A DNA stretch of 64,000 nt, from assembly GCA_964644615.1 (NCBI GenBank), contig CAZXXA010000011.1, positions 25,816-89,815 on the forward strand. The letters run 5' to 3'. The notes under the pieces are model-generated. The model searched no databases. It saw only the letters and a list, made by a program, of their open reading frames with translations, and was not told where the DNA came from. The DNA comes from an uncultured Methylovirgula sp. GTDB taxonomy: Bacteria > Pseudomonadota > Alphaproteobacteria > Rhizobiales > Beijerinckiaceae. Both the position numbers and the translations under genes were made by a program. Below are positions 2,588 to 6,218 of this stretch, in pieces. Each line of letters starts with the position of its first letter. The first letter of the stretch is position 1.

Positions 2588-3322
2588 CTAGCGAGGCAGA
2601 TGCGAATGCTGCTTGGCCCAATGCAGCGTCGAATGGGTGGCCAGCGCTTTGCCCATTGGAGGGCTCGTCATCGAGGCGCTTGTCGTCCGAAGATGCAGAT
2701 GACCCATCGCTCCGACGCGCATCGAGGTCTGATGCGCCGTCCCCGTCGCCATCGGAGCGCCCAAGGTCGCTCCGCTATTTTGCATCATGGCCACAGGCCG
2801 CAACGCCATCTCGCCATTCCCCACGGCAGCGACGGGGGCTAGAGCCGTTTCGCTCTTCGTCATTGCTGTCATCGGCTGGGCCGACATATGGCCTTCAGCC
2901 AGGGCCGCGATCGGCCGCAGCGCGGCGCCGCCACTCACGATGGCCGCGACGGGACGCAGCGACGTCCGGCCCTCTGCCAAGCGAGCTACGGGGCCGTTTT
3001 CGATGATTGCAGCGACCGGTCGCAAGCTCGTGGTTCCATGTCGCAGGGCAGCCGTCGGACGCAGCGGAGCTTCATTATTGATGACCGCTGCAACGGGCCG
3101 CAAAGACGTCGCGCTTTTTGCGATAGCGGCGGAGGGTTGCAGGCTGGTCGCGGCGCTCTGCATGGCGAGGGCCGCACCCGGCATGGCCTCGGCGCCCATC
3201 GCCTTCGTCGGCGCGCCGGACAATTCGACCGGCCGACGCATCGATTCATCGGCAGAAGCGGTCAGAGAACCCAATCCAAGCGCGAGACCTAATCCCGCGG
3301 ACAATACATAACGCAACGCCAT
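2588..3322 (-). CDS. Secreted protein with about ten 13-residue repeats (TSLRPVAA-type)
   Basis: GGAG upstream of ATG 3322; signal-like MALRYVLSAGLGLALGLGSLTASA; repeats TSLRPVAAVINNE, APLRPTAALRHGT, TSLRPVAAIIENG, TSLRPVAAIVSGG, AALRPIAALAEGH. Confidence 0.7.
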   Translation of the reverse strand: MALRYVLSAGLGLALGLGSLTASADESMRRPVELSGAPTKAMGAEAMPGAALAMQSAATSLQPSAAIAKSATSLRPVAAVINNEAPLRPTAALRHGTTSLRPVAAIIENGPVARLAEGRTSLRPVAAIVSGGAALRPIAALAEGHMSAQPMTAMTKSETALAPVAAVGNGEMALRPVAMMQNSGATLGAPMATGTAHQTSMRVGAMGHLHLRTTSASMTSPPMGKALATHSTLHWAKQHSHLPR

Positions 3323-3521
3323 AAACGCAGCTCCGATCCTGCGAGATGAAACTGCCATGGGAAGCCCCCTATGTTTTTTTTTGCAAATCCGTTCGACCTG
3401 CGGGAAGACTCAAGAAAGCCCTGCATCGCAATGACGGATTTGTCTCGCGCTAGCGTGGCCATTTCATGGCCCACGCCGCGCATTTTCTGGTCATGCCGTC
3501 GTTTTTATGCGGCGGATTTCC

Positions 3522-4169
3522 TCACGGACTCGCTGCCTTGAAGAACTCGAAGTTCTGGAAGGTAAGTTTCGCCGTCACACCATTTCCGGCACCGCCACCG
3601 ACACCGATGAGCGAGCCATTATCAGGCGGCGTGCCGTTGAACTGCGTCATTTTCTTGCCATTGACGAAGATCGTGGCGACGTGGCCCCGCATCTGAACTT
3701 CGACCTGATTCGTGTCGCCAAGCTGGAATTTGATCGCCGGATCGGGCGTCCAGCTGATCGGCGTCAGCCAGCGGCCGTTAGAAGCGCGGTCGACCTTGTA
3801 ATAGCCCTGTTTGCCGTCGCTGCCGATATTGAGCACATACATGTTCGAATAATCGGTCACCCAGAAGAGGACCAGCGCCTGCGCCTGATCAATGGCGCTC
3901 GCTTCGGCGATCGAGGCCTGCACGCAGATGCTGCCGTCGCCATAATAATCGCTCTGGCTCACGACCCAGCGCAGATAGCCCGGCTGTGGCTGCACGACAA
4001 GCGAACCATTCGCGACACTGAGCGTGTTGTCGGCCTTGCCCCAGCTCGGGTCCAAAGTCTGGAACGTATCCTGGAACGCCGGTTTGCCCGTGCACGCCGC
4101 GAAGGCCGGATCGGTGACCAAAGCGCCGGCGAGCGCGAAGAGACCCATCAGCTTGAATCGCATACCCAT
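3522..4169 (-). CDS. Secreted beta-sandwich protein, concanavalin A/DUF1080-like lectin or glycosidase fold
   Basis: GGAGGAGG RBS before ATG 4169/4163; signal MRFKLMGLFALAGALVTDPAFA; beta-rich with TNQVEVQMRGHVATIFVNGKK and IGVGG..FQNFEF patterns typical of DUF1080-like domains. Confidence 0.65.
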   Translation of the reverse strand: MGMRFKLMGLFALAGALVTDPAFAACTGKPAFQDTFQTLDPSWGKADNTLSVANGSLVVQPQPGYLRWVVSQSDYYGDGSICVQASIAEASAIDQAQALVLFWVTDYSNMYVLNIGSDGKQGYYKVDRASNGRWLTPISWTPDPAIKFQLGDTNQVEVQMRGHVATIFVNGKKMTQFNGTPPDNGSLIGVGGGAGNGVTAKLTFQNFEFFKAASP

Positions 4170-4370
4170 CACCCTCCTCCCGACACAACGGCAGCCGCCG
4201 TCGGATGCCCCACTCGAGTAGCTCGCCCACGGCGAGCGTTCCATCAAGCATCTGAATCCGCGCAATGCCGCGCGGACAGCAATCGCCTTCAACATTGAAA
4301 GACGCGCGAGCGTCTCATAGTTCATGCAACATCGGCCCCGGCGCAGCACCGCTTCGCGACCGCCGGAGGA

Positions 4371-6218
4371 TTATGAATTCGACATCTGCCAGGAATAGAC
4401 CTTGGTCGTGACACTCGTATCCTTATCGGGCCCGACGATGACGAGCGACACGGGCCCGTCCGAGATCGGCTTGTAAGACAGCGACGGATACCACTGGCTG
4501 TCCGTATTGCTGACGATCGTGCGGTTGTTCGCGTCCTTGAGATAGATTGCCACCGGTGTTTCCTTGTCGGCATAGACAAAGACGAAGTATGGAACGCCGG
4601 CCTTCAGAGGAAGCGTCTGGACTTTGATCCGCTGCGCCTTCTTCGTCGTCGGATCGATGCGCATGTCGTTGGAGACGAGCTTGTCGGGCGTCGTCAATAC
4701 GGGCGCCGCCGCGGCCTTCGGGTCAGGCTTGGCGTGATCCATGATCCAAGCGCCGATCACATCGATGCCGCGTCTGAAATTGGCCATCTGCGCCGCCCAA
4801 TAGGGCTTGTCAGCATCGAAGGCAGCCTGGGCGCGGCCTGCCGCCAAATCCGCGACGACATCGATGCGCTGCGCATAATTGATTTCGACGCCGCTCGGCG
4901 CGCCACGGCTCGCCCACTCGCCTTTCGGGCCGAAGGTGCCGGCATTGTTGATCGCAACGATATGGCCGGACGCAGCGACGATCGGACTGCCGGAGCCGCC
5001 GCCCGTCTCCGGGATTGAATGCTGCACGAGATAGCGATGTGCGGGATCGGTTTGCAGGAACAGGAAATCCGTCAGCGCCGTGATATTGCCGAAGTGGACT
5101 TGCGGCGTCGCCGCGACCGTCAGAACCCGATCGCCCGAAACATTCTCATAAGGGAAGCCGGCAGAGGCGAGCGGCATGCCGGGCTTCAATGCCAGGAGTT
5201 CATCCTTCGATGCGAACTCGAGCCGGATCTCGGGCGGCAGTTCCTCTTTGACCGTCAGCAGACCGGCATCATAGCCATAGCCGGAGATTTCGCTGGGCGC
5301 CTGTCCATAGACAGAGGGCACAAAGGCCGGGTCCTTGCCCGAGACGAGTCTTGGAAAATCGATGTAGCCGGGATGGAAGCTGTGCTCGACGACTTCATAG
5401 GGCGTGTGGCCAGTCCCCGACTGCAGCACCAGCAGCTTGTCGCCTGGCTGCAGATTATCGCATTCGGCAATCGTCCGATCCGCCACAGGGAATTTGTCGT
5501 CGCAAATGCCGGCGATATGCGCATTGGTCGCCAAGACATGCGGACCGATCACCCAAGCCGTGCCGAGCGCCGTTTTGCGGCCCTGCGCATCCTGCAGGAT
5601 GACAAGGAAGGTCGCGTTCCAAACTTTATCGATGACGCTTTGGCTGATGCTTGTCGCAGCCGCCGCCTGGCTATGCGCCAAAGCCTGTTTGGCGGCCGTC
5701 TCGTCTTGAGTCAGGCTGGCGATCGTCGCCGCCATCTGCCGCTGATTCTGGTCGTAGATGCGATACCAGATACCAATCACCGCGACGATCAGGATCGCGA
5801 CGAACGCACCCGCCAAACGTATATGATGAAGCTGCGTCGCGGCGGGCACGAATTTATCTTCGCGGCCTGTGACGCCGATGTTCGGACTGAGATCGGCGCG
5901 GTCGATTTTGACTTCGAAGCTCGGACCGTCCTTGCGGCCGAGATGCAAGACCGAATTGGGATCGATGGTTTGATCAGCGCCGACAGGAGTTCCATTGACG
6001 CTGACAAAATGCAGGCCGTGCGAGCCTTCGTGAATATGGATGGTCCAATCGTTGAGATCGCGGACCAGCGCGAAATGCCGGCGCCCAATGAGCTCTTCAT
6101 CAGCGGGATAGACGATGTCGCAATCGGGCTCGCGGCCGAATTCGATTTTCGTTTTGCTGTCGTCGAAGCTTTGGCTCTGTCCCGCGAGCGGGCCGCTCAA
6201 GTGGCGAATGGTAATCAT
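4371..6218 (-). CDS. FHA domain - TM - trypsin-like serine protease - C-terminal PPC-like beta domain
   Basis: FHA: IEFGREPDCDI..IGRRHF..VSVNG..LHLG; TM IRLAGAFVAILIVAVIGIWY; triad TNAH / YDAGLL / GGSGSP. Confidence 0.85.
   Translation of the reverse strand: MITIRHLSGPLAGQSQSFDDSKTKIEFGREPDCDIVYPADEELIGRRHFALVRDLNDWTIHIHEGSHGLHFVSVNGTPVGADQTIDPNSVLHLGRKDGPSFEVKIDRADLSPNIGVTGREDKFVPAATQLHHIRLAGAFVAILIVAVIGIWYRIYDQNQRQMAATIASLTQDETAAKQALAHSQAAAATSISQSVIDKVWNATFLVILQDAQGRKTALGTAWVIGPHVLATNAHIAGICDDKFPVADRTIAECDNLQPGDKLLVLQSGTGHTPYEVVEHSFHPGYIDFPRLVSGKDPAFVPSVYGQAPSEISGYGYDAGLLTVKEELPPEIRLEFASKDELLALKPGMPLASAGFPYENVSGDRVLTVAATPQVHFGNITALTDFLFLQTDPAHRYLVQHSIPETGGGSGSPIVAASGHIVAINNAGTFGPKGEWASRGAPSGVEINYAQRIDVVADLAAGRAQAAFDADKPYWAAQMANFRRGIDVIGAWIMDHAKPDPKAAAAPVLTTPDKLVSNDMRIDPTTKKAQRIKVQTLPLKAGVPYFVFVYADKETPVAIYLKDANNRTIVSNTDSQWYPSLSYKPISDGPVSLVIVGPDKDTSVTTKVYSWQMSNS

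Follow-up and report, generated by a model that had tools for sequence, protein, structure and literature searches.

In this study, we report the analysis of a repeat protein, here named REP, of 256 amino acids, which is encoded at positions 2588-3358 of a 64,000-nucleotide stretch of DNA (the window) from an uncultured Methylovirgula sp. REP is placed, newly here, in a hypervariable family of exported proteins tied to a gene pair that encodes a membrane protease and a DUF1080 protein. The role that we favour for it, with a probability of about one half, is that of a disordered periplasmic partner, substrate or pseudo-substrate of the protease/DUF1080 pair.

The link to the protease was followed through related loci (numbered L; their proteins are numbered P). 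Distant loci were reached by searching with the protease and with DUF1080, and then reading the gene behind DUF1080. The order protease, DUF1080, small exported basic protein was found in the window, L001, L013, L030, L031/L040, L033/L034/L042, L036, L039 and L041, which makes nine distinct loci when L031 and L040 are counted together and L033, L034 and L042 likewise. Wherever this protease-DUF1080 pair was found in Methylovirgula-type bacteria, DUF1080 is followed by a gene for a small exported protein, and this strict synteny bears out the connection with the neighbouring protease proposed in an initial annotation of the window. In L033/L034 the trio stands by itself beside hopanoid/MMPL and ferritin genes, and genes for a kinase, sigma, STAND or TIR protein are absent for 10 kb around it; the protease, DUF1080 and the disordered protein therefore form a conserved unit.

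The family members behind DUF1080 include P0071 (L030), P0072 (L031), P0073 (L033) and P0075 (L036). Mature chains of the members tested are Ala/Ser-rich (18-26% Ala), have isoelectric points (pI) of 10.9-12.0, and contain 0 Cys and 1-5 aromatic residues. A signal peptide with an AxA|D/E cleavage site and a following box, H-[KR]-x-[VI]-E-x-x-G-x-P-T, are both present in the nine-member alignment. Comparison of REP with P0071 by hhalign gave a probability of 91.7% (E 7.8e-7) over residues 1-56, the boxes being HKKIEVQGSPT and RRPVELSGAPT. At the other end, the L039 protein shares the tail AHSTLHW...KKHSHLPY; P0071 and P0072 end in HQHLPK, and QPLPK is also found in distant members. The middles of P0071, P0072 and the L039 protein are unrelated to the REP array, that of L039 being rich in Ser, Ala, Met and Thr. 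Distant members carry 1-3 copies of a [LV]-L-[RQ]-P-[VA]-A-A motif (e.g. AVLQPVAAAAPG, TLRPAITGVSG and LSLRPASRAAS), with the core L-[RQ]-P-x-A-A; the 13-residue array is therefore a lineage-specific amplification within a hypervariable family. As judged from these alignments, the family is one in which the signal peptide, the N-terminal box and a His-containing tail are constant, and the middle is free in sequence and length. Between the window and L001, REP is the fastest-evolving gene of the locus, with 50% identity as against 93% for DUF1080 (the L013 copy of DUF1080 is also 93% identical), 87% for the protease, 76% for the kinase and 71% for nSTAND1. Between the window and L039, identity is 85% for DUF1080 and 28% for the disordered protein.

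The features of the REP gene and its product are as follows.

Window 2588-3358, minus strand: complete REP gene, 256 amino acids, with the stop codon at 2588-2590 and the ATG at 3356-3358, from the open reading frame (ORF) list and its translation.
Window 3365-3369, minus strand: Shine-Dalgarno-like GGGGG, 6 nt before the REP start, invariant in 6/6 aligned upstream regions.
Window 3251-3358, minus strand: predicted Sec-type signal peptide, residues 1-36, with predicted cleavage at ASA|DE; the basic n-region, hydrophobic h-region and AxA site were read from the sequence.
Window 3203-3250, minus strand: conserved N-terminal box of mature REP, DESMRRPVELSGAPTK, with the family pattern H-[RK]-x-[VI]-E-x-x-G-x-P-T; it carries the homology detectable in distant members.
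Window 2771-3148, minus strand: array of nine full 13-residue units and one remnant, residues 71-196, consensus T-S-L-R-P-V-A-A-I-[VI]-N-[NG]-[GA].
Window 2966-2992, minus strand: 9-residue remnant unit PVARLAEGR, which is a full unit, APLRPSAALSNGQ, in L013 and a 12-residue unit in L001.
Window 2591-2770, minus strand: C-terminal non-repeat region, residues 197-256 (60 residues), rich in Met and His.
Window 2591-2656, minus strand: conserved tail, the last 22 residues, MGKALATHSTLHWAKQHSHLPR, in which H242, H246, W247, K249, H251 and H253 are invariant in five close orthologues.

The initial annotation had drawn the gene from 2588 to 3322. Its lower end was correct; 3322 proved to be an internal Met, and the true ATG lies at 3358, from which the N-terminus MAVSSRRIGAA is kept in all orthologues. 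A word-indexed search of 5.8 billion clusters returned four relatives (P0002-P0005), one of them from an NCBI metagenome-assembled genome (MAG) labelled Methylovirgula sp., and the same frame was called by independent gene callers at JGI, NCBI and Logan. The orthologue in L002 (84-695; NCBI MAG GCA_035493095.1, contig DATJIT010000095.1) was deposited as P0004, with 173 amino acids, beginning at an internal TTG. An in-frame ATG 90 nt upstream of this TTG restores the conserved signal peptide and gives a protein of 203 amino acids.

All six frames were tested because the region is G+C-rich, with long ORFs in several frames on both strands. Codon alignments of REP gave ratios of non-synonymous to synonymous substitution (dN/dS) of 0.13-0.38 among orthologues, with differences mostly at third positions, and the antisense frame that shares these third positions gave a similar range of 0.24-0.43. 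As dN/dS and codon-position analysis alone were unable to split the two frames, stop-codon counts decided: the antisense frame has 3-4 stops in every orthologue, and the sense frame of REP is the sole one open in 5/5, so that conservation of the frame in relatives, a point raised in the initial annotation, was found. These comparisons indicate that REP is a real gene. It is scarcely credible that the ORF has no function and merely results from high G+C content or from an antisense gene, a suspicion that the overlapping ORFs and the antisense dN/dS range might raise; besides the interrupted antisense frame, it is opposed by the conserved signal peptide, Shine-Dalgarno sequence and start codon and by indels that stay in frame.

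REP is predicted to be exported through Sec, and the periplasm is its presumed location. The AxA|D/E site is kept in distant family members (AQA|DG, ASA|DE and ARA|EE), and the secretion predicted at the outset thus agrees with a signal peptide conserved family-wide. Residues 6-26, which fall within this peptide, form the sole helix of the AlphaFold model. Export by twin-arginine translocation (Tat) was also considered: S-R-R-I-G-A-A of the window is S-P-K-I-G-A-A in L001, and P0071 and P0072 have S-R-N-K and S-R-N-R, respectively. Tat export is unlikely because L001 has Pro-Lys in place of the twin Arg, and the conserved Tat motif S/T-R-R-x-F-L-K was not found in the REP family. The short conserved box that follows the signal peptide reads ...RRPVELSGAPTK.

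The mature protein of 220 residues contains 0 Cys, 0 Phe, 0 Tyr, 1 Trp, 9 His (7 in the last 50 residues) and 15 Met, with 21% Ala, a pI of 11.5 and a net charge of +9. These counts match the earlier description of a mature part without Cys, with one Trp and a His-rich end. Such a composition could suit a periplasmic metal-binding sponge like SilE or PcoE acting through Met and His: the 15 Met and 9 His of REP are clustered in the last third, four His of the tail are invariant, and SilE is described as a disordered periplasmic His/Met protein (PMC5008109). We regard a metal-binding role as highly improbable, since the Met count varies (15 in the window, 6 in L001 and 8-9 elsewhere), no metal-resistance genes (sil, pco, cus) are present in the locus, and the repeat core has no metal-ligand residue.

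In the array, the full units begin at residues 71, 84, 97, 110, 132, 145, 158, 171 and 184, and the remnant spans residues 123-131. All ten units listed previously, about ten 13-residue repeats with a 9-residue partial, are present in strict register. The window and L003 have a common 4-residue deletion, which took A-P-L-R from the remnant unit. Identical residue pairs in REP number 41 at a lag of 13 residues and 37 at a lag of 26; in 2000 shuffles, the highest count at any lag was 28. Tandem Repeats Finder found nothing in the DNA of the array, the repeat being visible in the protein only. Pairwise nucleotide identity between units is 51%, with 34% at third and 67% at second codon positions, and Leu, Arg, Pro and Ala of the units are written with mixed synonymous codons. 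The low third-position against second-position identity, together with the invisibility of the array in DNA, implies that the array is old and kept by selection at the level of the peptide.

Over 40 units from five genomes, the conserved residues are L3 (36/40), R4 (30/40), P5 (38/40), A7 (34/40) and A8 (34/40), and mean identity between REP units is 43%. The number of units is 10 in the window (remnant included), 9 in L001, 8 in L003, 8 in L013 and 6 in L002; variation in repeat number, for which a check of relatives had been suggested, therefore extends from 6 to 10 units. These changes are in-frame indels, and L002 and L013 differ by exactly 26 residues (two units) at a synonymous divergence (dS) of 0.18. 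Units 1-4 and the last unit match by position between genomes. Because units hold their individual identity across genomes, there is no concerted evolution among them, and the pattern indicates that they are under purifying selection, unit by unit.

This pattern bears on the proposal, made with the first description of the repeats, that REP is a multi-core peptide precursor, in which the neighbouring protease would cut the chain into about ten diffusible 13-mers acting as signals or antimicrobials. Tandem units with a conserved core and a variable spacer would be expected of such a precursor, a protease is co-encoded, and V-A-A resembles the small-aliphatic sites favoured by HtrA-type enzymes. 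The proposal is nevertheless quite unlikely, because the units are heterogeneous and position-specific (only 43% identical on average, with identities kept across genomes), distant orthologues have only 1-3 motifs, and the locus contains no maturase, modifying enzyme, exporter or peptide-specific receptor gene.

AlphaFold modelling of REP from a 5-sequence alignment gave a mean predicted local distance difference test score (pLDDT) of 34 and a predicted template modelling score (pTM) of 0.12, with no secondary structure after residue 27. REP is probably intrinsically disordered, and we expect this to hold in vivo as well. The suggestion that the array builds a solenoid or a functional amyloid did not hold up in this light. 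A structural polymer, either a tight beta-solenoid or an amyloid-like fibre of 13-residue rungs, would account for the strict period, the Asn/Gly-rich, turn-like positions 11-13 and the beta-branched V/I at positions 6 and 9-10. It is very unlikely: the model, built on a shallow alignment, has neither strand nor helix in the repeats, Pro stands in mid-unit in 38/40 units, the repeats lack aromatic residues and a Gln/Asn ladder, unrelated, non-repetitive Ser/Ala-rich low-complexity sequence takes the place of the array in orthologues, and no curli- or Fap-type secretion or nucleator genes are found in the locus.

No match to a known family was found for REP in Pfam, NCBIfam or PADLOC (0 in each), and the best match among PDB sequences had an E value of 0.71, in line with the original statement that no family was recognised. 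A hidden Markov model (HMM) profile scan of 1.84 billion representatives returned two true REP-family clusters. The 17 other matches of that scan were judged spurious; seven were fetched and are eukaryote-like low-complexity proteins with short tandem repeats, such as P0008 (2366 residues), the spurious matches carrying SSLEPVAAVPEPx or ALRPETALAVSKH repeats. That the profile attracts unrelated eukaryote-like proteins is a warning that period-13 repeats rich in Ala, Pro and Val arise independently. Literature on LRPVAA consisted mainly of papers on lactoferrin and other milk or body-fluid peptides, none bearing on REP.

The features immediately upstream of REP are as follows.

Window 4371-6218, minus strand: protease with the order FHA, transmembrane segment, periplasmic S1 protease, beta-sandwich (Pfam FHA and Trypsin_2).
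Window 3522-4169, minus strand: DUF1080, an exported protein of ~215 residues, 3-keto-disaccharide-hydrolase-like (lectin fold) (Pfam PF06439, E 6.6e-07).
Window 3439-3492, minus strand: intergenic block of ~54 nt upstream of REP with a 10-bp hairpin, GCGTGGGCCAT-GAA-ATGGCCACGC, which folds as a stem-loop.

The periplasmic part of the protease (residues 160-615; window 4371-5741) was modelled from 36 sequences with a pLDDT of 84.6. Its best fold match in the PDB is the S1C-NTF2 sensor of RsgI9 (7SJY; E 7.8e-10, identity 12%, TM-score 0.33-0.46), followed by HtrA1, MucD, DegQ, DegP and DegS. The fold also matches VesB and VesC, which combine a protease with a C-terminal beta-sandwich, and in the window protease the last ~115 residues make up a beta-sandwich of their own, with about nine strands, like that of Vibrio VesB/VesC. 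On this modelling, the periplasmic part is HtrA-like by predicted fold. S1C enzymes of the HtrA/DegP type act on unfolded chains rich in Ala, Val and Ile and prefer small aliphatic residues at P1. Both neighbours of REP are acidic (S1 domain, pI 5.3, net charge -10; DUF1080, pI 4.7-5.2) as against the basic REP chain.

These results modify the idea of REP as a protease decoy, which had been argued from the resistance of Arg-Pro bonds to trypsin-type cleavage. Arg/Lys-Pro pairs number 7 and 10 in the repeat clade against 1.5 expected, and in the other lineages tested the enrichment is absent or marginal (p = 0.18, 0.036, 0.85 and 0.29). Arg-Pro protection was thus rejected as a family-wide trait, and the argument is weak both because the enrichment is restricted to the repeat clade and because the protease is HtrA-like by fold, such enzymes favouring small aliphatic P1 residues. 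The looser reading of REP as a partner of the protease stays the best.

In that reading, REP would be a multivalent partner of the protease and DUF1080 in the periplasm, most likely a flexible chain that occupies or titrates the protease as its substrate or pseudo-substrate. The constant ends may dock the chain to the protease or to DUF1080, the PVAA|I core of the units would suit an HtrA-type site, and the basic chain could complement the acidic S1 domain and DUF1080. The presence or degradation of REP might then set the activity of the protease on other targets, such as the Pro/Ala-rich tail that the anti-sigma-like protein has in the periplasm, and signalling downstream through kinase/FHA, sigma/anti-sigma or STAND-TIR would depend on it. 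Every step in which REP interacts with the protease or with DUF1080 is one that we infer.

Several points weigh against the partner reading. The lack of a fold in AlphaFold, coming from an alignment of 5 sequences, is weak evidence of disorder, and the extreme C-terminus is not strictly kept, L013 stopping at HSH and L001 at ARPGSY. P0073 (L033) and P0075 (L036) have no significant similarity to REP and correspond to it in gene position and composition only; as far out as L033 and L036, the unity of the family rests on synteny and composition. Moreover, protease and kinase genes occur together without either DUF1080 or a disordered protein in L035, L037 and L024-L029, and the protease therefore does not need the disordered protein. 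Among such distant pairs are some at 27-37% identity and one at 55% (L037).

DUF1080 offers a further alternative, in which REP is an O-glycosylated, mucin-like envelope protein bound by the lectin-fold DUF1080 and the protease is incidental. Thr or Ser opens most units, the L039 orthologue is extremely rich in Ser, Thr and Ala, and DUF1080, always adjacent, belongs to a concanavalin-like lectin/glucanase fold family. As the likeness is compositional only and the locus has no glycosyltransferase or O-oligosaccharyltransferase gene, we consider a mucin-like role rather improbable. The extent of DUF1080 itself was revised: its mechanical ORF (3522-4349) has 275 residues, orthologues have 213-217, and the start is likely the Met of MGMRFKL near 4169, leaving ~200 nt between genes after the protease gene. 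Its signal ends in AFA-AC, which is lipobox-like.

REP is the last gene of a co-oriented run that encodes a sigma-like protein, an anti-sigma-like protein, a TPR-Ser/Thr kinase, the FHA-transmembrane-trypsin-fold protease, DUF1080 and REP, in agreement with its earlier placement at the end of a protease-sigma run. The run converges on a TIR / nSTAND1-transmembrane-rhodanese pair, in the same order in contigs of relatives, and the surrounding locus as a whole contains nSTAND1, TIR, Ser/Thr kinase, FHA and trypsin-fold peptidase domains.

This arrangement invites the view that REP is a secreted ligand or co-sensor of the convergent nSTAND1-transmembrane protein, which has a periplasmic, Cys-less rhodanese-like domain and a TIR partner, and is not a partner of the protease. 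In the window, a gap of 91 nt lies between the end of the REP gene and the nSTAND1-rhodanese gene, and the convergent pair lies downstream in the window, L001, L002, L003, L030 and L031. However, neither a STAND nor a TIR gene lies within 10 kb of the L033/L034 trio, most loci have a lipoprotein gene between the REP-type and nSTAND1 genes, and REP is oriented with the protease operon and not with the STAND operon; a STAND ligand is therefore an unlikely identity for REP.

It is similarly doubtful that the REP family serves an envelope-level immune module as its bait or antidote in the periplasm. Such a ten-motif chain would silence the FHA-anchored, HtrA-like protease or be itself a guarded target, and its destruction, by its own protease after kinase signalling or by an enzyme of an invader, would trigger sigma and/or STAND-TIR; the fast sequence turnover of the chain would then reflect an arms race. 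A bait of this kind can be likened to the decoy-guard logic of plant immunity, placed here in the bacterial periplasm.

The hairpin block upstream of REP has a single copy in the window. Only loci of the repeat clade carry it, and its sequence is nearly invariant in the window, L001, L003, L013 and L014. It is kept in L001 though dS between the REP coding sequences of L001 and the window is ~1 (synonymous sites saturated). The block matched nothing in Rfam and lacks a T-run; possibly it acts as an operator or as an RNA element that controls REP apart from the operon. A search for a promoter motif common to the upstream regions of REP, DUF1080, sigma and the RyR-channel gene gave none that was convincing, a sigma-70 promoter scan found nothing, and a terminator scan gave chance-level matches only.

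Other genes were noted around the trio in related loci. In most relatives, a gene for a lipoprotein of 406-438 residues (signal ...LTGC / LSGC, no Pfam match) lies between the disordered-protein gene and the nSTAND1 gene:

L001, 11018-12289: lipoprotein gene.
L014, 1032-2348: lipoprotein gene.
L002, 989-2209: lipoprotein gene.
L030, 17806-19056: lipoprotein gene.
L031, 17592-18842: lipoprotein gene.
L040 and L041, contig ends: lipoprotein gene.

This gene is not in the window locus nor in L003, and no homologue was found across the window's genome. In a sister lineage (L030, 3992-15638, and L031, 3857-15637), the locus is enlarged, and a fused TIR-nSTAND1-TPR gene, a kinase gene and three tandem membrane-protease paralogues were observed; the paralogues have 615, 623 and ~602 residues, and all precede a single DUF1080 gene and a single disordered-protein gene. 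In L037 (2020-7854), a kinase and protease pair, the latter 55% identical to the window protease, lies beside a phage-type integrase gene, which suggests that the module moves on mobile islands. In L026 (11902-12804) and L027 (5693-6724 and 6729-7739), which belong to other families of the order, one or two genes each for secreted IVGG-type (S1A) trypsins adjoin the protease and kinase, replacing DUF1080 and the disordered protein.

Apart from the window's genome, only four relatives, from metagenomes or MAGs, were found to have a protein of the repeat-bearing clade. A profile search of 200 genomes sampled from the same family, 5 of which belong to the same genus, found no member of this clade, giving borderline noise (E > 1e-3), and it missed true distant members that were later reached through synteny. 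Members of the wider REP family are present in several genomes from this genus (loci L039-L042).

With REP, a third component that is concrete and open to test can be named for an uncharacterised membrane protease module, one that combines a cytoplasmic FHA domain with a periplasmic HtrA-like protease and is found in the company of STAND/TIR/kinase conflict genes. The three-gene unit is small enough for reconstitution in the laboratory, and if REP is a substrate of the protease or a brake on it, it would reveal how intracellular phosphorylation signals are linked to proteolysis outside the cell. REP is also a clean natural case of a short linear motif amplified from 1-3 to ~10 copies and then frozen by selection.

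Among known systems, CsgA and FapC are likewise secreted and have short imperfect tandem repeats with Asn/Gly-rich turns. Unlike them, REP has 13-residue units with a central Pro, no Gln/Asn ladder and no predicted beta structure; its locus has no CsgB/E/F/G or FapA-F genes, and the array is absent from distant orthologues. With SilE/PcoE (PMC5008109), REP shares small size, Sec export, predicted disorder and the presence of His and Met; it differs in lacking conserved HxxM/MxxH arrays and a metal-resistance context, in its unkept Met content and in its ligand-free repeats.

Conflict systems with STAND NTPase, TIR, Ser/Thr kinase, FHA and trypsin-like domains are described in passages of Kaur et al. 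(2020, PMC7159879; 2021, PMC8195603), and the window locus has the same domain vocabulary. Those passages of PMC7159879 (where 'secreted' occurs 0 times) and PMC8195603 make no mention of a secreted disordered or DUF1080 component, and the window protease differs from these systems in facing the periplasm. A survey of serine proteases (PMC2605481) lists an FHA-FHA-Tryp architecture, its available passages being without mention of a secreted component.

The best structural match of the window protease, though not of REP, is RsgI9 of Clostridium thermocellum (7SJY), an anti-sigma protein with an S1C-NTF2 extracellular sensor. In RsgI9, an S1C protease-like module serves in trans-envelope sigma signalling. 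We know of no repeat protein that accompanies RsgI9.

In the DegS-RseA (AlgW-MucA) sigma-E pathway, small exported envelope proteins, namely MucE or the C-terminal peptides of outer-membrane proteins and RseB/MucB, act on a membrane-anchored HtrA-family protease that governs an anti-sigma/sigma pair. Sigma, anti-sigma and a membrane-anchored HtrA-like protease are present in the window operon too, and REP has a conserved C-terminal tail. The differences are that REP has no sequence similarity to these proteins and its extreme C-terminus is not strictly kept, that the window protease has no PDZ domain and carries a cytoplasmic FHA domain and a C-terminal beta-sandwich, and that the trio is also found without sigma/anti-sigma (L033/L034). 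For the role favoured here, the functional analogy is to the MucE/RseB-type modulators of DegS/AlgW, to which REP has no homology.

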